Shown here: one piece after another, positions 445-19,282 of the stretch
How positions within the stretch are numbered: the first letter of the stretch is position 1
Layout: each line of letters opens with the position of its first letter
DNA from: a virus
Reading direction: 5' to 3' (one strand)
DNA length: 19,879 nucleotides
IMG/VR virus record: IMGVR_UViG_3300025099_000200
Coordinates: 1-19,879 of that record
Translations under genes and position numbers: made by a program
The notes under the pieces: generated by a model
Told to the model about the DNA's origin: nothing
Seen by the model: only the letters and a program-made list of their open reading frames with translations
The model's database searches: none

Positions 445-445
445 G

Positions 446-1266: not shown

Positions 1267-1272
1267 TATAAT

Positions 1273-1919: not shown

Positions 1920-2688
1920 AAAATTTTGGTGCAGTCTTCATTATCTTTTGACCCCTCATCCAATTAGTATACGGTACTTCATTTTCTTTCAAGTCTGAAA
2001 GTATATGCCAATTTATTAATCCCCTTCGTTGAAGAGACCTCATATATTGTTGTTCCATATCTTTATCATGAGCTGGTCTATTTAAAATATAGACTGGCAA
2101 GTGCCAACTGTGTGGATCACAATTACTAACTTTACCACGTTTATCACGCGGTCTTTTATTAATTGTTTTAGCAAAGAAGTCAAAGCCTATAAGATCAATA
2201 CTTTTATAGGTTTTTATTTTTTGTAAAAACCATACTATAGTAATAAAACCTGCACTAGGTCTATAATCATTAGTACCTTTCAAATCTTTACCAAACTTAT
2301 TCATAACCGTAATAAGTTCTTTATCAGAATACATTTGTGTGTATTCAGGAAAGTCTTTTGGTAACCTATCTTCTAATACCCAATCCTTAAGCATTAAGTT
2401 ACCTCGACTTCTATTTATTAATACTTTCGTATTTTTAAATTTGCCTGTAGCAAATTCTTCTTTAACATTGTTAAACGCTGGCGCTCTAAATTGACCGGTT
2501 ACCCATATGTCACATTTAGTGCCAAGACTTTTTTCTTGTAAAGGTGTAGCTTCAATAGCTCTTCCAAACCTTATAACAATATCATACTTATCGATAAAGT
2601 CTGAAAGATTATGATTCATAATCTCTACAGAGTTACCGATAAATATAATACGTTTATCTTTTACAAACTGTTGTATATCCTCCACCAT
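1882..2688 (-). CDS. Sialyltransferase-like glycosyltransferase (GT29/GT42-like motif layout)
   Basis: N-terminal RIIFIGNSVEIMNHNLSDFIDKYDIVIRFG resembles sialylmotif L and the CstII N-terminus. RPSAGFITIVWFLQKIKTYKSIDLIGFDF resembles motif S. It is followed by HSWH (motif III-like) and HDKDME (H-x4-E, motif VS-like). Confidence 0.55.
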   Translation of the reverse strand: MVEDIQQFVKDKRIIFIGNSVEIMNHNLSDFIDKYDIVIRFGRAIEATPLQEKSLGTKCDIWVTGQFRAPAFNNVKEEFATGKFKNTKVLINRSRGNLMLKDWVLEDRLPKDFPEYTQMYSDKELITVMNKFGKDLKGTNDYRPSAGFITIVWFLQKIKTYKSIDLIGFDFFAKTINKRPRDKRGKVSNCDPHSWHLPVYILNRPAHDKDMEQQYMRSLQRRGLINWHILSDLKENEVPYTNWMRGQKIMKTAPKFSKTSRIVPQSQQ

Positions 2689-3311
2689 TCTTCTGAAGCT
2701 TCTGCGTCTTTATAACTATCAAACCAAGGTCCGCCGTTTGTATAATGTAATGCCTTAGCACCTTCTATATTATAATAACCAACTAATGAATTATATTCTT
2801 TAGGTATTGAACCTATGTTATCTTCATTTATAAAATGAAATTCATGTAGCTGTGCTGGCGTTGCGTTATCTAAATATTCTTTTGTTAATTTATTTTTATA
2901 CCATTCATTTCTGAATATCATTAAGCTAGACCAGTTTTTCTTTGGGTAACTTTTATTAACAACACCATTCATTTTGTTAGCGTCTGCTTCATAGTCATCA
3001 TGCTTTACAACAGCTAAGTTATATTGATTTATATATTTTCTTATTTCTCTTGGATCACATTTCCATAAGAAATCATTATCACAAAACATTGCAATACCTT
3101 CGTAATTACAAAGTAATGGTACATAGAATCTAGTAAAAGAAAATTCTGTTGATTCTCCATTAACATCATCTCTGCCATAGATGCCAGCATCTTTTAACTT
3201 AGCTTTATCTAACCAAGTTATTTTAGCTTCTGGCCAATAATATTTAATTGATTGTGCGCAAACTTTTGTTGCGTCTGTATATCTTGAGTCGTGTCCTATA
3301 AATATTCTCAT
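2661..3311 (-). CDS. GT-A fold glycosyltransferase, GT8-like
   Basis: FTRFYVPLLCNYEGIAMFCDNDFLW contains the DxD-type motif (DND) in the usual GT8 context. The size and layout match the small GT8-like proteins of marine phages. Confidence 0.7.
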   Translation of the reverse strand: MRIFIGHDSRYTDATKVCAQSIKYYWPEAKITWLDKAKLKDAGIYGRDDVNGESTEFSFTRFYVPLLCNYEGIAMFCDNDFLWKCDPREIRKYINQYNLAVVKHDDYEADANKMNGVVNKSYPKKNWSSLMIFRNEWYKNKLTKEYLDNATPAQLHEFHFINEDNIGSIPKEYNSLVGYYNIEGAKALHYTNGGPWFDSYKDAEASEEWWRIYNSL

Positions 3312-3313
3312 AA

Positions 3314-3658
3314 CTATGCTTTTTTACCTGATGATCTTCTGTTAATATCATCATGATTAAACTCTGCCCAGTACAATTCAAAAGCAACACCATCTTCTAA
3401 TCCTTCAAACTGATGAAACTTTCCTGGCTTTACCATAGTAAAATCACCAGCTTCTAATATTGTTTCATCAACAAGACCTTGATCATCTTGCCAAACTCTA
3501 ACGAGCATTTTACCGGATTCAACAAAAAATCCGTTCCATTTAAATTTGTGTTCATGTTCTGAACATTTAAATCCTTTATTATATTCTATTCTATGAAATT
3601 CTAATACACCGTTCTTGTGTATCATTTCTGTTTTACCCCAAATTTTTCCTGCTTTCAT
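3314..3658 (-). CDS. Small single-domain cupin protein (mannose-6-phosphate-isomerase-type cupin)
   Basis: KIWGKTEMI...EFHRIEYNKGFKCSEHEHKFKWNGFFVESG...GKFHQFE matches the cupin His-rich motif 1 and motif 2 pattern. The start overlaps the upstream stop (TAATG). Confidence 0.7.
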   Translation of the reverse strand: MKAGKIWGKTEMIHKNGVLEFHRIEYNKGFKCSEHEHKFKWNGFFVESGKMLVRVWQDDQGLVDETILEAGDFTMVKPGKFHQFEGLEDGVAFELYWAEFNHDDINRRSSGKKA

Positions 3659-4470
3659 TATTTACTTTGTTTAAAATATGGTTTAGACCAGTTAGACTTA
3701 TTTGATTTAACGTGTTGAACTTTTTTTGTAACTCTCACTTTAGTATAAGGCGCCCAGTTATACCATTTGCCTCTTCTATTTTGTGATACAGGTGTTATTT
3801 TAAAGTTCTTTAATGTTTGATCTGGTTTATTTTTGAAGTGTATACTTAATAATATTCTAGGTCCTATAGTATCAACTTTATGATATTGATAAGACGGAAT
3901 ATATAACATATCTCCAGGCTCTAAAACAAATTCATCTATTATTGTTTTAGGTTTATCAGGAGTAAACTCTTCATATATAGTCCATTTGGTTTTACCTTCA
4001 GTATGAAATAAAAAGTTTTCAGTTGCATCTGCATGTGCAGGAAACGACTTTGATTCAGCATTTGGAGAAGCATAAACATTTACTTGTCCGTGCCCAAAGA
4101 ATTTTTCAAATTCAAAACAAACTTTAACTAAGTTTTCTTTTTCGTATTCAGCAAAAGGTATTACAAATGTTTTATTTTGTTTTTTCCAAAAATCAAATAT
4201 TTGTTCTTTACTTAACATAGGTAACTTTAATTTACCTTTAAGTATTTTATCTAAGCACCATCTACCATCTTTGGTTTTATCGGTACCCTCTATTATTTGT
4301 AAACTTTTTACATTCGGGTATCTGTTTAAATAATTATTTAAATCATCCCACGTAAATAAATTCTTAAATTTATTTCTTCTTATTACTAAATGTTTTTTAC
4401 CCCAGTAATTTTGAAAAAAGTTTTTTACACTAATAGGCTCTAGTATATTTTCTAATGTTATTCTATCCAT
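3658..4470 (-). CDS. JmjC / cupin_4 family 2-oxoglutarate-Fe(II) oxygenase (ribosomal-oxygenase-like)
   Basis: HxD...H facial triad: FPAHADATENF (H-A-D) and the distal YQYHKV. The N-terminal FFQNYWGKKHLVI is typical of cupin_4/JmjC proteins. Confidence 0.7.
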   Translation of the reverse strand: MDRITLENILEPISVKNFFQNYWGKKHLVIRRNKFKNLFTWDDLNNYLNRYPNVKSLQIIEGTDKTKDGRWCLDKILKGKLKLPMLSKEQIFDFWKKQNKTFVIPFAEYEKENLVKVCFEFEKFFGHGQVNVYASPNAESKSFPAHADATENFLFHTEGKTKWTIYEEFTPDKPKTIIDEFVLEPGDMLYIPSYQYHKVDTIGPRILLSIHFKNKPDQTLKNFKITPVSQNRRGKWYNWAPYTKVRVTKKVQHVKSNKSNWSKPYFKQSK

Positions 4471-6184
4471 CGCAAGCTAAACAATTTTCGTCCATTGCTT
4501 GATCGGCAATATCACCTCTCAATACAGACTCGGTTCTCATATAATATAATGTTTTAATTCCTTTTTTCCAAGCAGCCATATGCACTTTATTAATCCACTT
4601 TGGCGTTGCTGTTGAAGGAAAGGCTAAATTCAAACTAACTGACTGGTCAACATATTGTTGTCTTATACCAGCTTGATTAACTAATTCTAATTGATTAATT
4701 TCTTTGAAAGTTCTGAATATTTCTTTGACGGGTATGTCGTGAGGTCCATGAGTAACACTGTCTAATTGTTTTAAACCTTGTATAGACCCTCCGTCCTTTA
4801 GTATCTTCGACCATATTCTTTCGTTATCTATTTTATTTTTTCGTAATATTTTTTTAAGTGTTGGGTTTTTACGAATGAAAGTACCTTTCGCACTTTGCTC
4901 TGTGAATACATTAGCTGCCCACGGTTCAATACCTGGGCTAACATTTCCACTAAGCTTAGAGTTACTGACAGTAGGAGCAATAGCGCGTAGGTGGGTATTA
5001 CGTAAACCAGTACCGACACACCAAAGAGGTTCTCCAAAAATTTCAGCCATAGCTCGTGAAGCTCTTTCAGATTCGATTTTAATTTGACTAAATATTTTTC
5101 TTGTTTCATATTGTGATAATAATCCTTCAAATGGTAAACCTTTTTCCTGTAAATATGTATGCCAGCCTAGCACACCTAATCCTAAAGCTCTACCTTTTTC
5201 AGCAGATCTAACAGAATTATGGAAGCCAACTTTACCTTTTGATTTCTGTATAAATTCTTCTAACACGCCATCAAGAAACCATGTGGCGTCATATATTAAA
5301 TTGGTTCCTTTCCATTCATCATACTTGGCTAAGTTTAATGATGATAAACAACAAACAAAAGAATGAGACTCATCAGTATGTAATGTAATTTCACTACATA
5401 TATTTGTCATATGTACTTTTAATCCGTGTTTTTTGTAAGCATCTGGGTTATTCTTGTTTGTATTTCCCTTAAATAAGATATAAGGTTCTCCAGTTGCTTT
5501 ACGTTTTTGTAATAGCTTACCCCATATCCTCCTCGCATCTTGATCTCCAGCATCAAGTCTTCGCATGAACTTGTCGCCGACCACAGCGCACTGGTGTAGG
5601 TTGAGCGATTGACGATTAACGTCTCCTTTAGGTTCTCGTATTTCCAACCACTCTTCAAAATCGGGGTGGTCAATATTAATATTAACGCTTGCAGCTCCTC
5701 TTCGGACAGATCCTTGGTTCGTTGCGAGTATAGTGCTATCGTAGATTTTACAAAAAGGCACAGTTCCATCAGATGTTCCATTTCCAGTTATGTTTGCACC
5801 GGCGGGTCTAATCATATTCAATCCAATGCCAACTCCACCGCCGTGCTTTGCGAGTAACATCATCTCTAAATTTTTCATACCAATGTCATAGATGCTGTCC
5901 GCAACATCAATTCCAAAGCATGATATAGGCAATCCTCGATCTGTACCAGTATTAGATAGCACAGGAGATGCCAAACACAGCCAACCTTTCCATATATATT
6001 CAAAAAAAGTTTCGGCTAGTTCTGGACGCTTTAAACGCTTCGCTACAGTTTCAGCAACACGCATATAAGCATCGCGAGGAGACTCAGTATTAATTAAATA
6101 ACCTCCAGCAATTGTTTTCTTATATACATCTGTATCACCCCAGCTAGGATAATCAATTCCCTTTTTCCAGTTGTTGTTCCACAT
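4463..6184 (-). CDS. nrdA: Ribonucleoside-diphosphate reductase alpha subunit, short form without ATP-cone
   Basis: Catalytic NICSEITL (N-x-C-x-E), CCLSSLNL, a C-terminal redox pair CLACDG, and many conserved class I RNR blocks. There is no VxKRDG-type ATP-cone at the N-terminus. Confidence 0.95.
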   Translation of the reverse strand: MWNNNWKKGIDYPSWGDTDVYKKTIAGGYLINTESPRDAYMRVAETVAKRLKRPELAETFFEYIWKGWLCLASPVLSNTGTDRGLPISCFGIDVADSIYDIGMKNLEMMLLAKHGGGVGIGLNMIRPAGANITGNGTSDGTVPFCKIYDSTILATNQGSVRRGAASVNINIDHPDFEEWLEIREPKGDVNRQSLNLHQCAVVGDKFMRRLDAGDQDARRIWGKLLQKRKATGEPYILFKGNTNKNNPDAYKKHGLKVHMTNICSEITLHTDESHSFVCCLSSLNLAKYDEWKGTNLIYDATWFLDGVLEEFIQKSKGKVGFHNSVRSAEKGRALGLGVLGWHTYLQEKGLPFEGLLSQYETRKIFSQIKIESERASRAMAEIFGEPLWCVGTGLRNTHLRAIAPTVSNSKLSGNVSPGIEPWAANVFTEQSAKGTFIRKNPTLKKILRKNKIDNERIWSKILKDGGSIQGLKQLDSVTHGPHDIPVKEIFRTFKEINQLELVNQAGIRQQYVDQSVSLNLAFPSTATPKWINKVHMAAWKKGIKTLYYMRTESVLRGDIADQAMDENCLACDG

Positions 6185-6377
6185 TTTTCTTTTCTAATTT
6201 TTGTAATTCTTTAACTAATTCTTTCCATTTGTCCTCTCCAATATGTAATTGAAAAGCGGTTAATGTACCCTGAGCTAAGCTTGTAACTTGTTCTAAGTCT
6301 TTAAGTGTTCTTGTTAGAGCACCACCTAAAACTTCAACTTGCTGCTGTAATTGTTTAACATTTTTTTGTATTCCCAT
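6153..6377 (-). CDS. Hypothetical coiled-coil protein (74 aa)
   Basis: ATG start. Heptad-like, Q/E/K/L-rich sequence. Sits between nrdB and nrdA on the same strand and overlaps the nrdA start by 32 nt. Confidence 0.5.
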   Translation of the reverse strand: MGIQKNVKQLQQQVEVLGGALTRTLKDLEQVTSLAQGTLTAFQLHIGEDKWKELVKELQKLEKKNVEQQLEKGN

Positions 6378-6378
6378 A

Positions 6379-6630
6379 TTAAGTTATTAAATGTTTTATC
6401 CACGCAAATAAACCATTAAGGTTTAATGCTACTAAGTTCCATTGCTTTCTTGATCCAGTCTGTACCATCACACAAATAAAACCTATTATATACAACCAAG
6501 GTTCTAATGTCCATTGTGCGGCAACTAAAAGACCGGCACCCATATATCCAATACGGGTAGCCATTCTTTCTAATGGTCCTAGTTGTCTTCTTCTTTCAAC
6601 AAGAAACCTTTTATATTTATTTATTACCAT
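6379..6630 (-). CDS. Small integral membrane protein (2-3 TM helices)
   Basis: Hydrophobic stretches IGYMGAGLLVAAQW, WLYIIGFICVMV and LVALNLNGLFAWI. The start overlaps the nrdB stop (ATGGTAA). Confidence 0.6.
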   Translation of the reverse strand: MVINKYKRFLVERRRQLGPLERMATRIGYMGAGLLVAAQWTLEPWLYIIGFICVMVQTGSRKQWNLVALNLNGLFAWIKHLIT

Positions 6631-7634
6631 ATATCTTCAAAATCTTCTCCTTCATTCGCTTTGCTATAGTCAGTCGGCCTAACAGCAAAGAAATCAGTGT
6701 GAGTGTGACCCCCAGTAAGATGATCGAACCAAGCCATTTTTTCAATTGATTTTTCGTCATAAAAAGTAAAATCCCATTGTTTATATTTCTTTGATGTATA
6801 ACCTAACTCAGCTAGCTTATCGCCAACTCTTTTCTTAATAAAATGTTTAAGATCGTATTGCGTTATACCTTCTATATCACCCATTTCAAATATCTTACTA
6901 ATGTAAGTCATTTCAGCATTGTGCATTGTTAAAGCCGCTTCAAATATATGTGGTTCACATTCAGCTTTTAATCCTGGTACTTGCGAACACATGTGTCTAA
7001 ATAATTGACAACCCATTTTACTATGCAATGATTCGTCTCTTACAGACCATTTCATTTGTTGGCCAATACCTTTAAGTAAATTACGTAACTGAAAACTGTA
7101 AAGCACGGCAAAAGCAGAGTATAAAGAAACTCCTTCTGCGAAAGCTGAAAAAGTAGCCAATGACTTTCCGATACCAACGGGATCGTTGCCATCATATGCA
7201 ACAAGATTATCAAAGCGAGCAGCCGTAGCTGGCTCATGAAGAAAAGCTTCATAGTCTTCGAGTCCAAGTGTTTCATTTAAATAACTGTAAGCTACAGCGT
7301 GTATTGTTTCTTGTGAGCCGAACATCATAGCCATTTGCTGTATCTCATGTTTAGGAAACCATGATACGACTTTCTGTGTCCAGTAATCTGATACTGCACA
7401 TTCTGTTTGAGCAAAGCCTAATAGTATATTACCAACTAAATTCTTTTCTTCAGCTGTTAACTTTTCGTTCCAGTCTTTAACATCACCGCTCATTGGTATT
7501 TCAGTATGTAACCAAAATGCTTGAGCTTGTTTTAACCAGCCCTCAGTATAATACTCAGGATATTCAAAAGGTTTATAAGGTATTCTTTCTGTAAATAAAG
7601 GTGCTTTACTCATATTAATTATTTGTTTTTCCAT
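6624..7634 (-). CDS. nrdB: Ribonucleoside-diphosphate reductase beta subunit
   Basis: Di-metal and radical-site motifs: QETIHAVAY (E-x2-H-x3-Y), FAEGVSLYSAF and VRDESLHS (E-x2-H). Confidence 0.95.
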   Translation of the reverse strand: MEKQIINMSKAPLFTERIPYKPFEYPEYYTEGWLKQAQAFWLHTEIPMSGDVKDWNEKLTAEEKNLVGNILLGFAQTECAVSDYWTQKVVSWFPKHEIQQMAMMFGSQETIHAVAYSYLNETLGLEDYEAFLHEPATAARFDNLVAYDGNDPVGIGKSLATFSAFAEGVSLYSAFAVLYSFQLRNLLKGIGQQMKWSVRDESLHSKMGCQLFRHMCSQVPGLKAECEPHIFEAALTMHNAEMTYISKIFEMGDIEGITQYDLKHFIKKRVGDKLAELGYTSKKYKQWDFTFYDEKSIEKMAWFDHLTGGHTHTDFFAVRPTDYSKANEGEDFEDIW

Positions 7635-7780
7635 TCTATAGCAAGATCAATAAATGGTATATAGAACACCACTTGTGACCAGATAGGTCCTTCATAAGTT
7701 CTAACCCCGAATAATAATCCAGGATATAAACCTATAGCCATTGACCAATCATCTTCCTTGCCCTCGATATTGTTTGACAT
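7619..7780 (-). CDS. Hypothetical 53-aa protein (below the track length cut-off)
   Basis: My translation: MSNNIEGKEDDWSMAIGLYPGLLFGVRTYEGPIWSQVVFYIPFIDLAIEWKNK. The stop overlaps the nrdB start region. It fills an otherwise unexplained gap in a very compact array. Confidence 0.4.
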   Translation of the reverse strand: MSNNIEGKEDDWSMAIGLYPGLLFGVRTYEGPIWSQVVFYIPFIDLAIEWKNK

Positions 7781-7883
7781 AATTTTTACTTGATTTTAAG
7801 TTTGACGTTTTAGATTTCGCATGAACTCCAGGACGACGAACTTTTGATTTAATTTTATATTGATATATATTTACTTTAGCCAT
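7749..7883 (-). CDS. Hypothetical 44-aa very basic peptide
   Basis: My translation: MAKVNIYQYKIKSKVRRPGVHAKSKTSNLKSSKNYVKQYRGQGR. The start overlaps the upstream small ORF's stop (ATGGCTAA). Confidence 0.35.
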   Translation of the reverse strand: MAKVNIYQYKIKSKVRRPGVHAKSKTSNLKSSKNYVKQYRGQGR

Positions 7884-8049
7884 AACATTTTATTCCGTAT
7901 TTATTATGTATAAACTCTAAATCTTTCCATCTTAAATAACCTCGTGTAGCTAAAGACCATCTGATGAACGTATCAATCTTACGTTCTTTATATTTACGCC
8001 TAGCTAAATGCTTGGCGGATTCTCTAGTATTTCTATTACGCGGTCGCAT
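7876..8049 (-). CDS. Hypothetical 57-aa basic protein
   Basis: My translation: MRPRNRNTRESAKHLARRKYKERKIDTFIRWSLATRGYLRWKDLEFIHNKYGIKCYG. It overlaps the 3' end of the nuclease gene by 46 nt in another frame. Confidence 0.35.
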   Translation of the reverse strand: MRPRNRNTRESAKHLARRKYKERKIDTFIRWSLATRGYLRWKDLEFIHNKYGIKCYG

Positions 8050-8459
8050 TCTTTTTGATTTTGTGGTTTAAATAAAGTATAGTTTGGAAACTGTTGAGTT
8101 ACCAATCTTTTAAATAATTTCCAACGCATTGGAAAAGATTCGTTAGGTCTACCTTTTGTTTCTATAATAAAGTCTTTACCAATAAAATCTGGTGTATACT
8201 TTATAGGTAATACTCTTTTACTACCTCTGTTTTTGAATAAGCCTTTACTGTTGGCTTGTCTTTCATAAGCTTCATTATCAAAATGAAAACCATTTAATAA
8301 CACAAATGTTTCACCTTCGTATTTAGCTTTTATGTTTGCTTTTTTCAAAGCCATATACATATATTTTTCTAAGCCAGATGCAAAGGTTATTCCATCGTAT
8401 TCAACTTTTTTAGAAACTACAGGTCCTCTTTTCTTTTTTCTATAGTACTTTTTCTTCAT
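8004..8459 (-). CDS. PD-(D/E)XK nuclease, T7 endonuclease I / DUF1064-like (Holliday-junction resolvase or host-DNA nuclease)
   Basis: FASGLEKYMYMAL...KYEGE followed by YTPDFIGKDFIIETKG (PD ... E-x-K) parallels T7 gp3 (SGLE...YTPDF...VETKG). The first ATG is at 8459; the track start at 8468 is TTG. Confidence 0.65.
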   Translation of the reverse strand: MKKKYYRKKKRGPVVSKKVEYDGITFASGLEKYMYMALKKANIKAKYEGETFVLLNGFHFDNEAYERQANSKGLFKNRGSKRVLPIKYTPDFIGKDFIIETKGRPNESFPMRWKLFKRLVTQQFPNYTLFKPQNQKECDRVIEILENPPSI

Positions 8460-9291
8460 TGACTTCAATATCTTTTACAAATGTACCATTGATCATTTTG
8501 CCTTTTCTATTGCATATTTCTTTAAATGCAGCAGATATACATTCTTCTATAGTAAAGCCTTCGAGATAAGCTAAGTTCGTTAACACAACTACAATGTCGC
8601 CAACAGCATCTTTAATTTCATCATTATCTTTATTAAGCAATGCTTTAGCTAATTCTCCAGCTTCTTCTTGAAGCTTAACATATTGTGTGTGACTATTACC
8701 TTTTTCGTATATACCTCTTTCAGCAGCCCAGTTTCTTATTAAATCAAACTCTGTTAGAGTTGTTAATTCAGTTGTGCCAGCTTTATATTTATTTAAAGGC
8801 ATTTTCTTTATGTTAGTCTTCATGGTTTCTATTAAGCTATTTAAACTGTTTATTTCACTAAATGCTTCCCATAAAGCTTTATTATATACATAGCTTCTAT
8901 CGCTATTGTATCTAGATATAAGGGCATTATTAGAAATCCAGTCTGCTAATTTAGCACATAATAATATTTTTCCAAATTCAGTTTTCCATGTTAGCCCGAG
9001 TTGATCGTGCAATCTGCCTCGTAATTTTGATACAGGCACTGGAAAAGTTGTGGTTTGTTCGGTTACGTTTATTTTCATTTTAAATAAATTTTTATAAAGT
9101 TTAGTGTCTCTCCTATATCCGAAAGACTTTTGAAGTTCTATCTCTCTGTCTGATATATAATCTATATCGTCCGATTGATCAAGAACTTCATATTCACTAG
9201 GTTTATAACCCTGCGTTTGCGTAACCCTTTTATAAAGATCACGTGTAACGCCGATTTTTTTACCCGGAATGTGATATAAATAGTATGTCAT
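8440..9291 (-). CDS. Fusion protein: N-terminal GIY-YIG-superfamily (T5orf172/MUG113-like) domain plus C-terminal MazG-like NTP pyrophosphohydrolase domain
   Basis: N-terminus: YYLYHIPGKKIGVTRDLYKRV...YEVL...DREIELQKSFGY. C-terminus: KLQEEAGELAKALL...EIKDAVGDIVVVLTNLA...RKGKMINGTFVK (EExxE ... D metal-binding helices of MazG-type enzymes). The start overlaps the TS-like stop (TAATG). Confidence 0.7.
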   Translation of the reverse strand: MTYYLYHIPGKKIGVTRDLYKRVTQTQGYKPSEYEVLDQSDDIDYISDREIELQKSFGYRRDTKLYKNLFKMKINVTEQTTTFPVPVSKLRGRLHDQLGLTWKTEFGKILLCAKLADWISNNALISRYNSDRSYVYNKALWEAFSEINSLNSLIETMKTNIKKMPLNKYKAGTTELTTLTEFDLIRNWAAERGIYEKGNSHTQYVKLQEEAGELAKALLNKDNDEIKDAVGDIVVVLTNLAYLEGFTIEECISAAFKEICNRKGKMINGTFVKDIEVNEEKVL

Positions 9292-10145
9292 TACTTACCA
9301 ACGTTTAATTTTGCCGGTATTGCCGACATAGGATTATAATTAATTAACTCGAAATTTTTCTTTTTTGGTATTTCTAAACCAGGGTTACTTCTATGGCCAC
9401 CTTTAAATACAATACCATCGCCGTGTATTTTTAATTTAGGTAACTCTATTGGCTTATGTGGGTTAAAAGGATTTCTATATACATAAGTTTGCGCAGCATC
9501 AAGATGATTTAAATATAAATGACAATCACCAAGTTGGCCTATTAATTTACCTGGTTTGTATACTGTATTAACACAAAGCAATTCAAGTAATACACCGTAC
9601 ATTGCAATATCATAAGGCAAACCTAAGAATACATCTGCAGATCTTTGAACCCATATTAAATCCATTTTATCACCATTTATATTGACTTGTATAGCATAAT
9701 GGCATGGAGGTAAAACCATATTCTTTAATTTATCTGGTCTCCACGCACTTAGTATATGTCTTCTTGACATTGGATCAATCATTATACCGTATATTAAATT
9801 CATAAGCTGGTCATAACCATTAAAGTCACGCCATTGTGCTCCGTACACTGGGCCAAGCTTACCATCTTTACGACCTGATCTTTTATAATCATCATCCCAA
9901 TAATGAACGCCATTTTCATGTAAATATCCCATATCAGTTCTACCATTTAATATCCATAATAGTTCTGATATAACATGATTAAAATACATTTTCTTTCCAA
10001 CTAACATTGGAAAACCTAATGACATATCGTGCTCAATCTGTCTACCGAATAGATGCTTAGTACCTACACCTGTTCTGTCTTTCTTTTCAGGAGCATTCAA
10101 TAAGTTTGCTACTAAAGCTCTATACTGTTGTTCTATATTTGTCAT
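9291..10145 (-). CDS. Thymidylate synthase (ThyA) family pyrimidine-nucleotide C5 (hydroxy)methylase. It carries Asp at the dUMP-specificity Asn position, so it is predicted to be dCMP-directed.
   Basis: DRTGVGT, SRRHILSAW, catalytic LPPCH, QRSADVFLGLPYDIAMY, GDCHLY. It aligns colinearly with E. coli ThyA (QRSCDVFLGLPFNIASY), but N177 is D. The ATG at 10145 (MTNIEQQYR) is preferred over the extended track start. Confidence 0.9.
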   Translation of the reverse strand: MTNIEQQYRALVANLLNAPEKKDRTGVGTKHLFGRQIEHDMSLGFPMLVGKKMYFNHVISELLWILNGRTDMGYLHENGVHYWDDDYKRSGRKDGKLGPVYGAQWRDFNGYDQLMNLIYGIMIDPMSRRHILSAWRPDKLKNMVLPPCHYAIQVNINGDKMDLIWVQRSADVFLGLPYDIAMYGVLLELLCVNTVYKPGKLIGQLGDCHLYLNHLDAAQTYVYRNPFNPHKPIELPKLKIHGDGIVFKGGHRSNPGLEIPKKKNFELINYNPMSAIPAKLNVGK

Positions 10146-10401
10146 AATAATATTTACAAAATTTATAATATTCTGGCCATAACGAATGCTTGTCATAAAT
10201 AGACGGAGCAAAGTTACATTTTTCTCCTCGTTTATATGGCCCTATGTTTATACATATTTTCCATTGTCCGTCTAATCCTGTTGACCAAGGTGATATTCTT
10301 ATATTGTTTCTTGTACAAAACAATTTCCATTCTTGTTCTTCAGGCGTAGCCACATATGCTGGCAACGGATTTGGTTTTCTTTTTTTATATAAACTTTTCA
10401 T
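10120..10401 (-). CDS. Hypothetical protein (93 aa, Cys/Trp/Tyr-rich)
   Basis: ATG at 10401 overlaps the primase-helicase stop (TAATG); the track start at 10410 is TTG. It overlaps the TS-like start by 26 nt. No motif was recognised. Confidence 0.55.
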   Translation of the reverse strand: MKSLYKKRKPNPLPAYVATPEEQEWKLFCTRNNIRISPWSTGLDGQWKICINIGPYKRGEKCNFAPSIYDKHSLWPEYYKFCKYYYDKYRTTV

Positions 10402-12128
10402 TAATCCCAAGGCATAGCCTCATCTTCAGTTACTGATTCATAATGAGGAATAAAGCTACCTGATTTAGGTTCCCATTTAAATATTGCTTCAGCACCATTC
10501 TCGCCAAGATTTTGAAACTTAACTTTTAAAACTTTTGCTTTAACAGTTTTAGCATCGTAATCTCTATGAACTAATAAGCCATGATAAGATGCATCATACC
10601 ATTCACCACCACCTTTAATGTTATACATAGTTGGCTCTTCAATTTTACCATCTTGTGTTTTATACATTTTAGTTGGGTGAGCTACAATAAATACTAAGAC
10701 ATCAAACTTCTTTGCAAATGTTTCAATCTTAGTTAGATATTCCATTGTATATCTGTTTACATCTTCAGTCTTACAATCTACGTCTCTGATCTTATTAAAA
10801 GGATCTATAACTAGACATTTAATACCTTTACGCTTAACTAACTCAGCACCTTTACGCAATACTGTTTCAAGAGTATAGCGTTCCATATCAATAAAGAAAA
10901 AGTTATCATTGACGTGCTCAGCTATTTGTTTCCATTTACTTGTGCCAATATCAGATTTACGTGGCATATCTTGCCACACCTTTCTCATTAGCTTATGAGC
11001 GTGTAAATACGTTGGCGCGTTTTCAGGTGATGCAAATGCTGTTTTCCATTGGTAGTTATTATTATAACCAACTACCATCTGATCAACGAAATCTGACTTT
11101 CCGCTAGATGGTATGCCAGTAACAGTGATAAACTGGCCAGTGTAAGTAGAAAAAATATTATCAAAATTAGGTAACCCAACTTGATAACCTTTCTTAAAAC
11201 CATTTTGTACAAAGTCTGTAACTTCATGTTCTATATCTTTAAAAGTTGTTACATTCTCAAGTGGTACAGGTCTACATTCTGTTATTGCATTTGCTAGATC
11301 TTCTTTACCGTACTTGATTAAATAATCGTTAGCATCTTTACAATCAATAAAGTTTACTAAGTAACATACTTCCGCACCTAGTCTTCTTATTAATTCATTT
11401 TGTAATGCAACGCCAGCTTCGTCTTGATCAACTGCTAATATTATTTTTTCTTTGTCTGTGAAATAATCTATACAGTTATCAAGATAATCTAAATTGTTAT
11501 GATTAAGTGTAGCTCCATTAGGAACAGACACTACGTTTTTAATACCAGCTTCATGAAACGCTAACGCATCCATTTCACCTTCAACAATAACACATGTATC
11601 ATAACCTACTATGCTATTAATATTATAAAAGACTTTCTCGGCACCTTTATATAATTTAAAATGCTTTCGTCCGTCTCTGTATTTAATATTGATAAGCTCA
11701 TCACCTATCATATAGTTGAACTTAATTGTATTTTCAACCTTGCCAGTTTGTGGCATGAATTCTGGGCCCACTGATACATTACAATCTTCTAATGTACTCT
11801 GCGATATACCTCTTGTTTTAAACCATTCAATTACTTTATCACTAGCACTTACTGGCTTATGTGTTTTAGTAGTAAACTCTGGTTTAGTATATACTTTATC
11901 ACTGCCGCCTTTGCGTTGATAAGTATGTAATTGAAATGTTGAGTCACAGTTGTGGCAAGTACCCAAACCACGATCCCAATCATAACTAGCACACTTTGCT
12001 TTTTTATTCTCAGGTTTACGGTTATGTGAACACAGGGGACAAATCCCCTGCGTTGCACCAACCTTTAAATCGTGATGGTTAAACTGGTCGATTAAAAATC
12101 CGTTAATCTCCGTGTTGTTTACTTGCAT
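10401..12128 (-). CDS. Bifunctional DNA primase-helicase (T7 gp4-like)
   Basis: N-terminal Zn finger CPLCS...CHNC. TOPRIM motifs VIVEGEMDALAF and AVDQDEAG. DnaB/RecA-type Walker A GIPSSGKSDF and Walker B CLVIDPF. Confidence 0.92.
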   Translation of the reverse strand: MQVNNTEINGFLIDQFNHHDLKVGATQGICPLCSHNRKPENKKAKCASYDWDRGLGTCHNCDSTFQLHTYQRKGGSDKVYTKPEFTTKTHKPVSASDKVIEWFKTRGISQSTLEDCNVSVGPEFMPQTGKVENTIKFNYMIGDELINIKYRDGRKHFKLYKGAEKVFYNINSIVGYDTCVIVEGEMDALAFHEAGIKNVVSVPNGATLNHNNLDYLDNCIDYFTDKEKIILAVDQDEAGVALQNELIRRLGAEVCYLVNFIDCKDANDYLIKYGKEDLANAITECRPVPLENVTTFKDIEHEVTDFVQNGFKKGYQVGLPNFDNIFSTYTGQFITVTGIPSSGKSDFVDQMVVGYNNNYQWKTAFASPENAPTYLHAHKLMRKVWQDMPRKSDIGTSKWKQIAEHVNDNFFFIDMERYTLETVLRKGAELVKRKGIKCLVIDPFNKIRDVDCKTEDVNRYTMEYLTKIETFAKKFDVLVFIVAHPTKMYKTQDGKIEEPTMYNIKGGGEWYDASYHGLLVHRDYDAKTVKAKVLKVKFQNLGENGAEAIFKWEPKSGSFIPHYESVTEDEAMPWD

Positions 12129-12138
12129 CGATTTTTAA

Positions 12139-12450
12139 TTAAAATGGTAAATCATCAACTGGTTGTTGAACTTGTTGAGGCATAGCAGCCGGAGCATTAT
12201 CTCTAGGTGCTACTTCAACGTTGTCGCCGTTCGTCCAAACTACTTTTACATTACCAAGATAAACTTTCTCAGTCTTAGCATCTCTTTCGTCTTTTGATTG
12301 TTGAACAATCACAGGACCTTGATTACCAAACTGATCAACTTCATCGTTGATAGTAATTGTAATTGGTAAGTATTTACCTTTCTTACCGTCGATAATTTTA
12401 TCTTTCGGTATTTTTGTTAAGTCAATACTCGTTGCTATTATACTTGCCAT
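12139..12450 (-). CDS. ssb: Single-stranded DNA-binding protein
   Basis: Small OB-fold-sized protein with a Pro/Gln-rich linker and the acidic C-terminal tip DDLPF characteristic of SSB partner-binding tails. It sits between the primase-helicase and the recombination genes. Confidence 0.75.
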   Translation of the reverse strand: MASIIATSIDLTKIPKDKIIDGKKGKYLPITITINDEVDQFGNQGPVIVQQSKDERDAKTEKVYLGNVKVVWTNGDNVEVAPRDNAPAAMPQQVQQPVDDLPF

Positions 12451-12451
12451 A

Positions 12452-12670
12452 TTATGCTGTTGTTTTAAATAAATTATTGAACATAGTTCTTAGCTCAGTA
12501 GTTCCTACTGTAGCTCCCGTAGCTTGTAATCTACGTCTAAAGTTGTCAGCTTTTTTACTGTACAAATGTAATCCGTCTGCTGATTTTGAATTAGCATAGA
12601 ATTCTGTTGTAGGAAATGTCATTCCTGTCATTGCACATTCTTTTGTTGTAACTTTTTTTCTTCTTCCCAT
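12452..12670 (-). CDS. Hypothetical basic protein (72 aa)
   Basis: ATG start, with the stop 1 nt before the ssb start. No motif was recognised. Confidence 0.55.
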   Translation of the reverse strand: MGRRKKVTTKECAMTGMTFPTTEFYANSKSADGLHLYSKKADNFRRRLQATGATVGTTELRTMFNNLFKTTA

Positions 12671-12677
12671 AATTAAA

Positions 12678-13409
12678 TTAAAGTGTTAAATTAATAAAAA
12701 ATTGTGATGGATCAAATCCATCGGTTTTGTAGAATAAATCGTAAGCTTCTACGGCTCTCTTTACCTTGTCTTTACCTGATTCATAAAATTCAGGTGAACA
12801 ATCCATAACTGCTATTTGATGAGTTTCTTTGTCAATTACTATAAAACAAAATTCATATCCAAATAGAGTACTGTATATATAAGCTTGGCTGTCGTAATTA
12901 AAACGGTTAGCAGACCACTTGAAAGAGTTTATATCTTTGGTTGTTTTCAAATCAATTATAAGCTTCTCGTCATGGTTTACAATATCAGCTTTACCCTTCC
13001 ACATCGCTCCTTCAAGCTCTGCTACACCAGGCTTCTCATACTCAACATCAATGCCCTTGATCAATCCTCTGCATACATCATTCTCCATTATCTTTTGCGT
13101 CATCAATTCTATTTGGTCAACTTCTTTTTGTAATAAGCAAAGTTCACCGCCAGACATTTCTTTATAAGCTTTTGTATTTCTTGTACTGCTTTCGATAACC
13201 TTATATTTCTTTAACTTGTTAGGTTCGAGTATCGCAGTATGGAAATATCCACCTACTAAAAATGCTGGACTTGGTTTGGATTGTTGTCCAAGTGCTAAAG
13301 GATTATTAAGCAAAGTTCTTATATCACTATTGCTAAGAAATTGTTTACCAAAATCTCCATAATAGTTTTCATCTTCTCTAAGCTTTTCAATAATCGCTTC
13401 TTTGTTCAT
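12678..13409 (-). CDS. PD-(D/E)XK recombination exonuclease (RecE/Exo VIII C-terminal, DUF3799-like)
   Basis: GKADIV ... LIIDLKT (D ... D-x-K) followed by YDSQAYIY (QxxxY). Adjacent to the Erf annealase. Confidence 0.75.
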   Translation of the reverse strand: MNKEAIIEKLREDENYYGDFGKQFLSNSDIRTLLNNPLALGQQSKPSPAFLVGGYFHTAILEPNKLKKYKVIESSTRNTKAYKEMSGGELCLLQKEVDQIELMTQKIMENDVCRGLIKGIDVEYEKPGVAELEGAMWKGKADIVNHDEKLIIDLKTTKDINSFKWSANRFNYDSQAYIYSTLFGYEFCFIVIDKETHQIAVMDCSPEFYESGKDKVKRAVEAYDLFYKTDGFDPSQFFINLTL

Positions 13410-13435
13410 ATTATCCGAATTAAATCGTATTTAGT
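13408..13435 (-). promoter_or_regulatory. Copy 4 of bipartite motif ACTAAAYACGA-N8-GGATAAT-AT
   Basis: - strand: ACTAAATACGA TTTAATTC GGATAATAT. The last AT is the first two bases of the exonuclease ATG. The upstream half lies in the last codons of erf. Confidence 0.4.
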
Positions 13436-13965
13436 TTGTTAACTTGACTTTCGGTTAACGCGTATTTAGCTTTAATAGCATCTAATTTACCACCAGCTTT
13501 AATATAACCTACAGCTTTTTCAATATCATTAAGCGTTGGCTTATTTGTTTTTGGAGCTGTAAATTTCTTTTTGCCATGATCATTAGTTGCATCGCTATCC
13601 TGTGTGTCATCTATTAATAATAGATTACCCAAAGCATACTTCTTAGCATAACTCGACGCACTACCAAATTGTTGTGGAGTCTGCATACCTTTTTGGTTGA
13701 GATCCACACCAACTATCGCAACAGCCGATACTTCCATACCTTTATCATCCATCAACTTTGCAGTTGTTTGAATTATAGGCATAGGATTAGTTTCAATTAA
13801 TTCTTCATTAATTGTGACTGCAACTCCTAACTCTAAGAGAAAGGGTTTTATGCTTTCGAGAATGTCTTCGGCACTTCTGAAGTAATACTTGCCGAATGAA
13901 TTAAATCTACTTTTCTTCGATTTAAATTTTGTTTGCAGGTTTGCAAGTTTCTGGTTTATGGTCAT
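13420..13965 (-). CDS. erf: ERF-family single-strand annealing protein
   Basis: FNSFGKYYFRSAEDILESIKPFL and GSASSYAKKYALGNLLLID match the ERF-superfamily conserved blocks. Paired with an exonuclease and SSB. Confidence 0.75.
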   Translation of the reverse strand: MTINQKLANLQTKFKSKKSRFNSFGKYYFRSAEDILESIKPFLLELGVAVTINEELIETNPMPIIQTTAKLMDDKGMEVSAVAIVGVDLNQKGMQTPQQFGSASSYAKKYALGNLLLIDDTQDSDATNDHGKKKFTAPKTNKPTLNDIEKAVGYIKAGGKLDAIKAKYALTESQVNKLNTI

Positions 13966-14019
13966 AATAATATAATTACATATTTTAAATTAAACTTAAA
14001 CGGTTTTGAGCACCGTAAC

Positions 14020-14787
14020 TTACAGGTAATCAAGCACTTGTGAACTATCTACATTATCGATAAGCACTTGTATAGCATCGCGTTTTATCTGTGAAATGCG
14101 TACATGTGCAGTTAGTACATTGATACCCACCTTAGCTGCGATTTCATTAGCGGAATGCTTATCACAGTCTAGTCCATAACCTAATCTTAATACATCATAT
14201 TGTACTGGTGTTAAGTGTTGTCTCATTAACGATAGTAAATAAGTATTAAGTAAAGCTATATTATATGGTTCTGACTTATCTATAACTTGATAAGCCATAT
14301 TGTCTTCATCGCCAGGTGGCTTTGAATCAATACTAGAAAATATACTATTGAAAAACATAGCAACCATCTTTTCATCTTTTGGATTCTTGCGTATTTCATT
14401 TAGTTTATGTTCTGGTATTCTTATATCGCCTCTATTTGTATCTACGGCTCTTCGTATTGCGCCCTTTATTCTTTTTGATAGAAACGACTTTAATGTTTTT
14501 TCTTGGTCATCAGACTTAGCTAAAAGCTCTCGATCAAGTTTAGTTACAGCAGCACATAATCCTAACGCACCTTCTTGTAATAAGTCATTAATACTTAATA
14601 CACCTGAGGCTTGATCTGAGGTTGATTGTTTTCTTGCTAACGTTTCAACAAGCGGAAGAAAATTGATTTCAATTTCTTTGTTTGTTAAAAAACAATAATC
14701 ACCATCAACAGGTTTTTTAACCCGCTTGAGCTGTGCTTCAACATCTTTTTTATATCTAACGTAGTTAGCTATATTATATTTTCTCAT
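14020..14787 (-). CDS. Sigma-70 family RNA polymerase sigma factor (phage-encoded)
   Basis: Region 2: DLLQEGALGLCAAVTKLD ... FLSKRIKGAIRRAV ... IRIPEH. Region 4 HTH: LTPVQYDVLRLGYGLD...SANEIAAKVGINVLTAHVRISQIKRDAIQVL. Confidence 0.85.
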   Translation of the reverse strand: MRKYNIANYVRYKKDVEAQLKRVKKPVDGDYCFLTNKEIEINFLPLVETLARKQSTSDQASGVLSINDLLQEGALGLCAAVTKLDRELLAKSDDQEKTLKSFLSKRIKGAIRRAVDTNRGDIRIPEHKLNEIRKNPKDEKMVAMFFNSIFSSIDSKPPGDEDNMAYQVIDKSEPYNIALLNTYLLSLMRQHLTPVQYDVLRLGYGLDCDKHSANEIAAKVGINVLTAHVRISQIKRDAIQVLIDNVDSSQVLDYL

Positions 14788-15422
14788 ATCTCTTTATTTA
14801 GTAATTCTTTTTCAAGTTTTAATTGTCTGCCAATATTTCTGTATATAGTTCGTGTTGAACATTTAAAATAATCAGCAAGTTTTTTGTATGTTATAACCTC
14901 TTTCATTTCATTTATATCCATCATAGCATCGTAGATCATATCTCTGGTAATCATTTTACTTCGGCCTATTAACTTGCCTACAATGCTTAGCTTCTCACTT
15001 AGTTTTAATAATGTATACGGTTTGAATATAACTTTACGTATACGATTTTTTGGTGGCGTATCACCTGCTCCGAATACTTCTTTAATCATGTTGTTAAGCA
15101 CTTTTTGTTTCATAAAGAATGTAACGAAACCATTTTCTTTGTTTGCAATAAAATTAAATACAGATCGCATGTCGTCTTCAAGTGAAACTTCATCGCCTTC
15201 GATGCCATCATAATTTAAATAATACAATACTAGAAAATGCCACTTCAAAGATTTATATGTAGTAATCTTTGCTTTACTTCTGAATAAGCTATAGCATTGA
15301 TACGTACCTTCCGCGTAGTAATCATATAGATCAGTTGACTCGGTTGGTATGTCTGTGATAGGGTTACGATAATATATTACTCGCCTATCATTCAGCCACT
15401 TCATGTTTCTGTCCTGTGACAT
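14784..15422 (-). CDS. Hypothetical protein with a C-terminal helix-turn-helix, putative transcription regulator
   Basis: The C-terminal ITYKKLADYFKCSTRTIYRNIGRQL is a resolvase/HTH_7-like DNA-binding motif. The stop overlaps the sigma start (ATGA). Confidence 0.6.
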   Translation of the reverse strand: MSQDRNMKWLNDRRVIYYRNPITDIPTESTDLYDYYAEGTYQCYSLFRSKAKITTYKSLKWHFLVLYYLNYDGIEGDEVSLEDDMRSVFNFIANKENGFVTFFMKQKVLNNMIKEVFGAGDTPPKNRIRKVIFKPYTLLKLSEKLSIVGKLIGRSKMITRDMIYDAMMDINEMKEVITYKKLADYFKCSTRTIYRNIGRQLKLEKELLNKEI

Positions 15423-15478
15423 TAGCTTATTACTAATTATTATTTATTAGCTTTCGTCGCTCTTCGCTTTCTTAGCTT
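15422..15478. repeat. Three direct TTAGCTT heptamers at exact 25-nt spacing in the intergenic region upstream of the HTH-protein/sigma-factor genes
   Basis: TTAGCTT occurs at 15422-15428, 15447-15453 and 15472-15478 (AAGCTAA on the coding strand). This is one of the few real intergenic gaps (63 nt) in the leftward array. The first copy abuts the ATG at 15422. Confidence 0.45.
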
Positions 15479-15485
15479 CTTTATT

Positions 15486-15785
15486 TTATCTTGTAAACCG
15501 AATAAGTTTACTTTGTATTGATGCAATATATGTTTTCTCATTTTGCTCATAATCTTTTAGTGTTATTTGTTCTGGTCCTTCAATTAATAGTTCTATATTT
15601 GCTCTTGAATAATACTCTTGCTCAGGCCAATTTAACCACCTGGTTTTCAGTAAAGTATAATCATCTGGTGGCAGATCTACTGCCCACACCATAGTGGCAT
15701 AACAGCTAATTATAGCCGCAAACACCATTAAAGTAACGGTCCATAACATCCGTTGGAACCGTATTAAATTCATAGGGTATTTCAT
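15486..15785 (-). CDS. Hypothetical protein, possibly membrane-anchored; the start is ambiguous
   Basis: The track start at 15812 is TTG. In-frame ATGs lie at 15785, 15773, 15749, 15728 and 15692. The longer forms carry the hydrophobic segment LWTVTLMVFAAIISCYATMVWAV but overlap the upstream gene by up to 80 nt. The 15692 start avoids the overlap. Confidence 0.4.
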   Translation of the reverse strand: MKYPMNLIRFQRMLWTVTLMVFAAIISCYATMVWAVDLPPDDYTLLKTRWLNWPEQEYYSRANIELLIEGPEQITLKDYEQNEKTYIASIQSKLIRFTR

Positions 15786-16221
15786 TTTTATTACAAATTT
15801 TTCGTTTATCAATTATATAGTATCTCCAATAACCGTGTATAGCATTTTGACGTTTATGTTCGTCCGGCATACACTGTGGAGGCTGTTCAAATTTTTTGGT
15901 CGGCATTTCAGATGGTGGATGCAATAGTGGTTCGGAGCACTTATCAATAGTTAAGTGACGTTTGCCATATCGCTTAGTATATTCATCGCCTAATGCTAAC
16001 ATGTGTTCGTATAGCCAATAGTAGTGATGAGTATTCTCGCGCACCCAAATGGTAGACGGATGATTGTAATGTACTTTTTTGTAAGGTACATTATCATATC
16101 CGAAATGATGGTGTGCAGTACACAACATCTGAGCCGACTCTAATATCATTTTAACCTTATGCTTGTCATATACATAACTAGCGGCGGTTATTGGTGATTC
16201 GTGTAAATAAAATATATTCAT
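15706..16221 (-). CDS. Conserved phage protein of unknown function. A relationship to endonuclease-V-type pyrimidine-dimer glycosylases is tentative.
   Basis: The N-terminal MNIFYLHESPITAASYVYDKHKVKMILESAQML is a motif I recognise from many phage and bacterial hypothetical proteins, and it is loosely reminiscent of the T4 endoV ELADQHL...E region. His-rich. Confidence 0.5.
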   Translation of the reverse strand: MNIFYLHESPITAASYVYDKHKVKMILESAQMLCTAHHHFGYDNVPYKKVHYNHPSTIWVRENTHHYYWLYEHMLALGDEYTKRYGKRHLTIDKCSEPLLHPPSEMPTKKFEQPPQCMPDEHKRQNAIHGYWRYYIIDKRKICNKNEIPYEFNTVPTDVMDRYFNGVCGYN

Positions 16222-16460
16222 TACATATCTTTAAGATGTTTGTTTATAATTAGATCTGGAACTGTTTTAGACGTGCCTAATACATCTTTAACTTTTTCAA
16301 TATAGTTAACAGCATCCATTAATTCTTCTTGTATATGTGTTAGCCATACGTCAAGAGGTTGATCGTCGTCTTTAAGTGTAACACCGTATTTTTTAAAACC
16401 AACATCAGATCGGTTTTTAAATTTTTGTACTACTCTATCAATTATTACGTCTCTACTCAT
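16221..16460 (-). CDS. Small all-alpha protein, possibly MazG-like/DUF1599-like
   Basis: FKKYGVTL...DVWLTHIQEELMDAVNYIEKV resembles the KYG ... EExxD helix pair of small MazG-type pyrophosphohydrolase-fold proteins. The assignment is weak. Confidence 0.4.
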   Translation of the reverse strand: MSRDVIIDRVVQKFKNRSDVGFKKYGVTLKDDDQPLDVWLTHIQEELMDAVNYIEKVKDVLGTSKTVPDLIINKHLKDM

Positions 16461-16480
16461 ATCTTTTATTATTTAATCTG

Positions 16481-16618
16481 TTATAGTGTTTGTCTAATAA
16501 GAGGTTTGCTACCTCCTCTGAGATCATGTTTTCGCTGTATAGTTGCCAAATAAGTTTGCTCATCTTTAATTTGTTTTTGTATTATATTAAAATATCTATC
16601 TCCTAATGAATCATTCAT
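16481..16618 (-). CDS. Hypothetical 45-aa protein
   Basis: ATG at 16618 overlaps the ligase stop by 8 nt (ATGAATGA). The track's longer form starts at TTG 16702, inside the ligase gene. Confidence 0.35.
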   Translation of the reverse strand: MNDSLGDRYFNIIQKQIKDEQTYLATIQRKHDLRGGSKPLIRQTL

Positions 16619-18197: not shown

Positions 18198-18198
18198 A

Positions 18199-19082: not shown

Positions 19083-19090
19083 ATTCAATT

Positions 19091-19118: not shown

Positions 19119-19123
19119 TTGTA

Positions 19124-19279: not shown

Positions 19280-19282
19280 TAG

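Follow-up and report, generated by a model that had tools for sequence, protein, structure and literature searches.

Reading an Asn177Asp homologue of thymidylate synthase (TS) as the marker of an enzyme that acts on deoxycytidine monophosphate (dCMP) is already established practice, and the work described here leaves that paradigm unchanged. Residue 177, in the numbering of Escherichia coli ThyA, is an experimentally validated discriminator between dCMP and deoxyuridine monophosphate (dUMP) (PMC8670742, PMC13326640), and the Asn177Asp change served as the benchmark for residue-level association in MetaGPA. E. coli ThyA N177D and Lactobacillus casei TS N229D have been described as methylating dCMP (Hardy & Nalivaika 1992; Liu & Santi 1992, both as cited in PMC8670742). 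The enzyme of phage Xp12 is validated as well: it makes 5-methyl-dCMP (5mdCMP) in vivo, 5-methylcytosine (5mC) fully replaces cytosine in Xp12 DNA, and 5mdCMP was likewise made in vivo by five of seven metagenomic TS homologues predicted from residue 177 to use dCMP (bioRxiv 10.1101/2024.12.05.627091). Here we analyze a stretch of virus DNA of 19,879 nucleotides (IMG/VR record IMGVR_UViG_3300025099_000200, positions 1 to 19,879; hereafter the window). Its gene at 9291..10145 on the minus strand encodes a ThyA-type TS homologue of 284 residues, predicted from profiles, alignment and a structural model to be a deoxycytidylate C5-methyltransferase.

The closest functional analogue is the engineered N177D/N229D pair, which has the same canonical ThyA scaffold, with the catalytic residues kept and the specificity Asn changed to Asp. 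The window protein differs in being natural and selected, and in carrying an insertion ahead of GPVYG, which T4 td has as well, a further insertion of about 20 residues and a C-terminal extension. The deoxycytidylate methyltransferases of phages Xp12 and PaMx74 (MT664984, NC_028809) are, like the window protein, phage TS homologues with Asp177, Asp169 and a non-acidic residue at position 143. However, the window protein is only 26-27% identical to them and represents a separate lineage, not an ortholog. Their genes are accompanied by a hydrolase (which the Xp12 record assigns to the HAD superfamily), a dCMP deaminase and a dihydrofolate reductase (DHFR), whereas the neighbor here is a MazG-like gene and the other three were not found in 30 related loci, covered over 10 kb on either side.

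A comparable pathway logic is seen in T4, where gp56, a pyrophosphatase that destroys deoxycytidine triphosphate (dCTP), is combined with gp42, a member of the TS family whose specificity site holds Asp. The window protein is 24% identical to gp42, which has Asp145 and Ser94 and is tail-less; in the window protein the two residues are Leu and Pro, and a tail is present. Unlike in T4, neither a gp1-like kinase nor a homologue of a DNA glucosyltransferase was identified. Cyanophage S-2L pairs a MazG-like NTPase with the base-modifying enzyme PurZ, which acts on a monophosphate. It offers an analogy for the MazG-like partner described below, whose fold matches include the S-2L pyrophosphatase (PDB 7ODY), but its pathway concerns a purine, 2-aminoadenine, and not cytosine.

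A ThyA-type protein with aspartate at the specificity position

The identical protein, with the same gene boundaries, was called independently on three JGI marine metagenome contigs. The Pfam Thymidylat_synt profile matched with E = 5e-72 over profile positions 1-265 of 266, TIGR03284 scored 214 bits against a cutoff of 108, and the best PDB sequence matches were canonical thymidylate synthases (E = 1e-48 to 1e-53). An AlphaFold model built from 67 sequences reached pLDDT 95.5 and pTM 0.94. Its top 50 PDB neighbors were exclusively canonical thymidylate synthases, and it superposed on closed, full-length enzymes with TM of about 0.9, over the whole chain in the case of E. coli ThyA. The initial annotation had described the protein as colinear with ThyA, and the full-length Pfam match, the TIGR03284 score and the model all bear this out. 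The motifs it cited, DRTGVGT, SRRH, LPPCH, QRSADVFLGLPYDIAMY, GDCHLY, YWDDDY and GPVYG, are all present in the translation.

Apart from one position, the active site is that of a canonical thymidylate synthase. Along with the PF00303 fold and the C-terminal tail, the protein retains, in E. coli numbering, R21, E58, W80, Y94, R126, R127, L143, C146, H147, Q165, R166, S167, D169, G173, H207 and Y209, among them the residues that define a ThyA (Cys146, Arg21/126/127/166, Glu58, Tyr94 and Asp169). The catalytic Cys lies in Leu145-Pro-Pro-Cys148 (codons 9702..9713, minus strand; E. coli L143...C146), with Leu, not Asp or Glu, three residues before it.

The departure is at the position that specifies uracil. 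Where ThyA has Asn177, which bonds O4/N3 of dUMP, the window protein has Asp179, encoded by GAT at 9609..9611 (minus strand) and equivalent to L. casei Asn229 and T4 gp42 Asp179. HMMER aligned the query block QRSADVFLGLPYDIAMY (qrsad...iamy) on QRSADVFLGVPFNIASY without gaps. In a MAFFT alignment of the window protein with E. coli ThyA (40% identity), the TS homologues of Xp12 and PaMx74 and T4 gp42 (the three phage proteins coming from annotated records), the Asn177 column brought together Asp179 of the query, Asp179 of gp42 and the Asp of both methyltransferases. Both alignments thus place the Asp at the Asn177-equivalent site, as first proposed. Since Asp179 replaces the uracil-specifying Asn, the protein should not be classed as a genuine thymidylate synthase.

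Conservation of Asp179 among homologues

The Asp is not peculiar to the window. The 120 closest database homologues, at 57-93% identity, have it in column 177 in 119 cases and a gap in the last; Leu143, Cys146 and His147 are kept in all 120 and Asp169 in 119. When more distant sequences were clustered at 50% identity, column 177 of the 150 best representatives held Asn in 137, Asp in 11 and Ser in one, with one gapped. Among the cluster representatives, a co-variation of Phe176Tyr with Asp177 was sought and no association was found. In a rough neighbor-joining tree, the query family formed a clean, all-Asp clade whose nearest outgroups were Asn-type thymidylate synthases, and Asp-type sequences outside the family were scattered over the tree. 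Both Asp codons are used among the relatives (GAT in 37, GAC in 4).

By these comparisons Asp179 is a clade-defining residue under selection, neither chance nor sequencing error, because it recurs in 119 of 120 homologues, marks an all-Asp clade and is encoded by both codons. The switch in the query family appears to be one of several independent changes from Asn to Asp.

One genomic slot is filled by two enzyme types

The variability of this locus was assessed in 80 IMG/VR loci (L037-L116) picked solely by similarity of their primase-helicase (at least 76% identity), the gene in the downstream slot being classified afterwards. The marker is the T7-type primase-helicase at 10401..12128 (minus strand), directly upstream in the window. 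The block is conserved, and its order is sigma-like, ERF, exonuclease, primase-helicase, small open reading frame (ORF), TS, MazG-like, DUF1064, and ribonucleotide reductase small and large subunits. A TS-family gene fills the slot in all 80 loci, being ThyA-like in 46 and gp42-like in 34. Leu143/His147/Asp177 was found in 38 of the ThyA-like genes and Leu/Tyr/Asp in 6, with 2 left unassigned by the pattern, and 33 of the 34 gp42-like genes carry Asp143/Thr147/Asp177. None of the 77 assigned genes has Asn177; all 77 have Asp. The two types divide exactly on the published product signature, Leu143 with His or Tyr147 against Asp143 with Thr147.

The gp42-like gene, a short one of 213 residues, was first seen at L035:2832-3473 and occurs also in L036 and the 34 loci above. 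Sister phages that carry it have a primase-helicase 76% identical to that of the window. The L035 enzyme agrees with T4 gp42 at every diagnostic position (Asp143, Thr147, Asp177, Ser-Asn-Tyr and a missing C-terminal tail) and shows all three hydroxymethylase signatures of PMC6400193. It is predicted to be a dCMP hydroxymethylase and, as judged from sequence, is a non-orthologous replacement of the ThyA-like gene of the window. Two non-orthologous enzymes in one slot thus share a single departure from TS, the cytosine-specifying Asp, and we regard this as the strongest evidence pointing to C5 modification of dCMP as the function of the slot.

These data also bear on the view that the protein still is a thymidylate synthase, or a dual dUMP/dCMP enzyme, in which the Asp is tolerated and the MazG-like partner supplies dUMP in the manner of a dUTPase. 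Such a role would fit the 40% identity to E. coli ThyA, the score above the TIGR03284 cutoff, the annotation given in every source, and an A+T content of 66% in a genome with a ribonucleotide reductase and no other visible thymidylate synthase. We consider it unlikely, though, as Asn177 is the rule in canonical enzymes (137 of 150) and Asp is found in all resolved family members, nearly half of them built on the gp42-like scaffold, an unrelated one that is never that of a thymidylate synthase. The N177D and N229D mutants, moreover, switch preference to dCMP, as cited in PMC8670742. Action on dCMP and not dUMP, as proposed in the initial annotation, is therefore supported by an Asp that stands in the right column, defines the clade and occupies a published discriminator position, and dCMP is very probably the substrate.

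Predicted product of the ThyA-like enzyme

For the product, three published signatures distinguish hydroxymethylases: an acidic residue, Asp or Glu, at the third position ahead of the catalytic Cys, a Ser at the second position ahead of the catalytic Tyr, and a tail-less C-terminus (PMC6400193). The acidic residue activates the substrate water, and D145N abolishes formation of 5-hydroxymethyl-dCMP in T4 dCMP hydroxymethylase (PMC6400193); the acidic signature at position 143 is also described in PMC13326640. All three are missing from the window protein, which has Leu145 (L143), a Pro in place of that Ser ahead of Tyr94, and an intact tail, AIPAKLNVGK. It shares with hydroxymethylases the Asp of the specificity position (T4 Asp179), and it shows the features that mark the Xp12-type methyltransferases, namely Asp at 177 (Asp179), Asp at 169 (Asp171) and a non-acidic residue at 143 (Leu145). 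The dUMP hydroxymethylases of the SPO1/SP8 type are uracil-specific and have Asn177; compared with them by description alone, the window protein differs in having Asp there.

The same residues speak to a further outcome, which the initial annotation had not considered, a flavin-dependent 5-hydroxy-dCMP synthase of the RB69 gp48/DLP3 gp80 type. Asp177 in a TS homologue is common to these enzymes, but they are diagnosed by D169N together with L143E (PMC13326640), and the window protein keeps Asp171 and Leu145 at those positions. Because of the retained Asp169 in particular (PMC13326640), we rejected this activity as extremely improbable.

With the signatures of both hydroxymethylases and 5-hydroxy-dCMP synthases missing, 5-methyl-dCMP is the likeliest product. 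The ThyA-like protein is thus probably a folate-dependent deoxycytidylate C5-methyltransferase, derived from a canonical ThyA by the switch from Asn to Asp. By extrapolation from the engineered N177D and N229D enzymes and from Xp12 enzymology, the Asp carboxylate would pair with N3/N4 of cytosine and so bind dCMP. The methylene of 5,10-methylenetetrahydrofolate would be transferred to dCMP and then reduced by hydride transfer, for which the C-terminal tail would seal the cofactor, giving 5-methyl-dCMP and dihydrofolate.

The main competitor at this step is a dCMP hydroxymethylase, in which water instead of hydride would capture the exocyclic methylene, yielding 5-hydroxymethyl-dCMP and tetrahydrofolate and a DNA with 5-hydroxymethylcytosine (5hmC), possibly decorated. 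In its favor, the predicted gp42-like hydroxymethylases occupy the same slot in 34 of 80 sister loci and are perhaps functional equivalents, the family-specific ...SVG(K) at the C-terminus could interfere with the closing of the enzyme on which hydride transfer depends, the 30 loci encode no DHFR in the vicinity, and a glycosyltransferase-like accessory cluster accompanies both slot types. Leu at 143, Pro before Tyr94 and the presence of the tail argue against it, all the more as even D145N is enough to inactivate the T4 enzyme (PMC6400193), and the engineered N177D and N229D synthases are methylases, as cited in PMC8670742. We hold hydroxymethylation to be unlikely, albeit the most credible of the alternatives.

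The initial annotation had judged methyl and hydroxymethyl impossible to tell apart by eye. Its dCMP substrate stands, while the choice of product can be narrowed in favor of methyl by the Leu, the Pro and the complete tail. Its suggestion that YWDDDY and the insertion before GPVYG might matter for hydride transfer did not hold, for T4 thymidylate synthase (td, PDB 1TIS) has an equivalent WDENY with an insertion, and the feature was dropped as a non-diagnostic clue to the product.

The MazG-like partner and the proposed supply of dCMP

The gene that follows, at 8440..9291 on the minus strand, encodes a 283-residue protein with a C-terminal, all-alpha NTP pyrophosphatase domain of the MazG/PRA-PH type (about residues 180-265), predicted to be a dCTP pyrophosphatase. 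The TS stop codon overlaps its start codon by one base, 9291 (TAATG), and the two genes are translationally coupled. In all 30 loci the MazG-like gene follows the slot gene within 0-12 nucleotides, and it was present in 79 of the 80 loci, the exception having only 730 bases downstream. Co-occurrence of TS with PRA-PH has been reported as specific to virome contigs whose cytosine modification was established experimentally (PMC8670742; bioRxiv 10.1101/2024.12.05.627091).

Pfam matches to MazG (1.3e-6) and PRA-PH (4.4e-5) were both above cutoff, and the metal-binding motif EExxE...ExxD is invariant (E209, E210, E213, E225, D228). Fold matches were at the generic MazG level (E = 4e-3 to 0.1) and comprised 1VMG, 5IE9, HisE, DCTPP1 and the S-2L MazG; the mouse and human dCTPase DCTPP1 scored no better than generic MazG or HisE. 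By analogy with gp56 and gp42 of T4, the partner is predicted to be a dCTPase that would supply dCMP and deplete dCTP. Deoxynucleotides would come from the phage ribonucleotide reductase, and hydrolysis of dCTP to dCMP by the coupled pyrophosphatase would feed the methylase and empty the dCTP pool.

At its N-terminus the partner is extended by some 175 conserved residues, of which residues 1-60 are modeled as beta-beta-alpha-beta-alpha (pLDDT 80-89). This part gave sub-threshold Pfam matches to T5orf172 and MUG113, families of the GIY-YIG clan, and is weakly GIY-YIG-like. An hhalign comparison of the N-terminus with T4 SegA returned a probability of 0.1%, a fold search matched the MazG part alone, and no match was found for residues 80-175. 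A fusion of nuclease and pyrophosphatase, if that is what the partner is, would echo the T4 combination of cytosine-DNA destruction and dCTPase.

Is the virion DNA modified?

From the enzyme and its partner we infer that the virion DNA carries a C5-modified cytosine. A host kinase, or a phage kinase that escaped recognition, would phosphorylate 5-methyl-dCMP, which would then be incorporated during replication, so that 5mC would replace cytosine in the virion DNA and protect it from restriction. The coupled MazG-like gene speaks for this step; the lack of a recognizable deoxynucleoside monophosphate (dNMP) kinase speaks against it.

Several observations weigh against a methyltransferase that provides 5mC to the phage DNA. 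The window has no P-loop dNMP kinase: Walker-A motifs occur only in the helicase and as a chance match in a cupin, and there is no kinase Pfam match. No dNMP kinase appears in the precomputed Pfam annotations of relatives, 10 kb either side. In published assays, co-expressed T4 gp1 was needed for strong incorporation (PMC13326640; bioRxiv 10.1101/2024.12.05.627091). A tblastn search of the 30 loci found no Xp12-like dCMP deaminase or DHFR, nor an Xp12-like HAD hydrolase, and no phage DNA polymerase is visible in the replication module. The specificity of a MazG protein is unreadable from sequence, the structural matches being generic. The rule that Leu143 means methyl is correlative, because the validated Xp12 methylase, at only 27% identity, carries Asn143 and Pro147 and its tail is truncated; the enzymes of Xp12 and PaMx74 both depart from the window protein in these features and in Leu165. 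The family also has a conserved C-terminal extension of one or two residues, ...KA(P/E/K)L(S/N)VG(K), where other Asp-type and Asn-type relatives end in ...VAV or ...IAV. Its specific insertion of about 20 residues (IHGDGIVFKGGHRSNPGLEIPKKK) lies near residues 236-262 (window 9291-9460, minus strand, holds TS residues of about 229-284).

The missing deaminase bears in the opposite direction on another scenario, in which 5-methyl-dCMP is made mainly en route to thymidylate via deamination and the DNA is only partly substituted or not at all. Such a path was proposed for Xp12, where a 5mC-selective deaminase adjoins the TS homologue and dTTP would arise from 5mdCTP (bioRxiv 10.1101/2024.12.05.627091), and it would suit an AT-rich phage with no visible canonical thymidylate synthase. 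As tblastn over the 30 loci (10 kb either side) gave no match to the dCMP deaminase of Xp12, and Pfam gave none in the window, we rate this route as improbable, and incorporation of 5-methyl-dCMP into DNA remains our preferred account.

As a proxy for modification, restriction-site composition was surveyed in 180 kb pooled from the window and relatives. GATATC was observed 5 times against 49 expected (0.10), and GGTACC (0.32), ATGCAT (0.34) and ACTAGT (0.38) were also under-represented. Palindromes of four bases were mildly depleted (0.67-1.06), in contrast to the strong avoidance in Cellulophaga phage phi10:1, in which GATC stands at 0.19 and GGCC and CGCG are absent. In this pool, sites that are cut and sites that are resistant showed no systematic separation in avoidance; KpnI cuts the 5mC DNA of Xp12.

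Neighboring genes and the accessory cluster

Between the primase-helicase and the TS gene lies a small conserved ORF of 93-96 residues (10120..10410, minus strand), which overlaps the TS start by 26 nucleotides and is present in most relatives at 50-85% identity. The small (6624..7634) and large (4463..6184) subunits of ribonucleotide reductase, both on the minus strand, belong with the TS gene to one co-oriented nucleotide-supply block. In relatives, a protein of 2200-2970 residues is encoded on the opposite strand directly past ribonucleotide reductase. The replication module (12678-19088, also seen in relatives L004-L016) includes ERF, a PDDEXK exonuclease and the primase-helicase, together with an ATP-dependent ligase (16611-17456), a DenV-like pyrimidine-dimer glycosylase (15706-16221) and a sigma-70 region-2-like protein (14020-14787). 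At the other end of the window, a 175-residue ORF on the plus strand (1273-1800) matched phrog_24759 ('methyltransferase', E = 2e-15) and had no Pfam or NCBIfam match; in the 30 loci it was found only in the closest relatives, L001, L018 and L032.

Downstream of ribonucleotide reductase, an accessory cluster on the minus strand (1882-4470) encodes a JmjC_2/Cupin_8 dioxygenase (3658-4470), a Cupin_2 protein (3314-3658), a phrog_28018 protein (2661-3311) and a weakly GT29 sialyltransferase-like protein (1882-2688). The cluster is found in about 13 of 17 close loci and absent from the others. In L035 (8001-12346) it gains genes for CTP_transf_3 (CMP-sugar synthetase-like) and DAHP_synth_1 (KdsA-like), and L007 carries a SIS+CBS gene. 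Taken together, these genes look like a pathway that makes and transfers a CMP-ulosonic acid (Kdo-like) sugar. Conceivably, the cluster would hydroxylate the modified cytosine, glycosylate it with a Kdo-like ulosonic acid, or both, a new hypermodification built on 5mC or 5hmC made at the nucleotide level; we find this very improbable. A role in host or virion glycans is more parsimonious, since the cluster accompanies either slot type and many relatives with the TS-MazG pair lack it. The JmjC protein as a 5mC oxidase was likewise found unsupported, the cluster being present also in gp42-like phages.

Source phages and biological meaning

No near-identical DNA was found in cultured phages, the best phage protein matches being about 40% identical. 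Judged by primase-helicase, the closest phage in culture, though a distant one, is Cellulophaga phage phi10:1 (43% identity), which has DNA methyltransferases instead of a TS gene. The family phages are about 40-70 kb, and the G+C content of the window is 33.8%. Homologues of the ThyA-like protein stem from marine samples of Tara, JGI and ENA, and each bears the plain annotation of thymidylate synthase.

The novelty here is modest. It consists of a lineage that appears to be independent of Xp12 and very close to canonical ThyA. To this are added the fixation of an Asp-type enzyme in a large, undescribed family of marine phages, its constant pairing with a MazG-like fusion protein, and its alternation with a gp42-like enzyme in one slot.

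If the prediction is true, the public annotation 'thymidylate synthase' (K00560) would be wrong for an abundant family of ocean phages, and the DNA of that family would be globally cytosine-modified. This would affect the sequencing and quantification of viromes by restriction-, bisulfite- and EM-seq-based methods and by nanopore basecalling. The protein would offer a natural, minimally diverged N177D ThyA for studies of how pyrimidine specificity evolves. The alternation of methylase-type and hydroxymethylase-type enzymes in a conserved slot would amount to a clean natural experiment on the switching of DNA modifications. Global modification would also bear on the ecology of host defense in marine, probably Bacteroidota, hosts.

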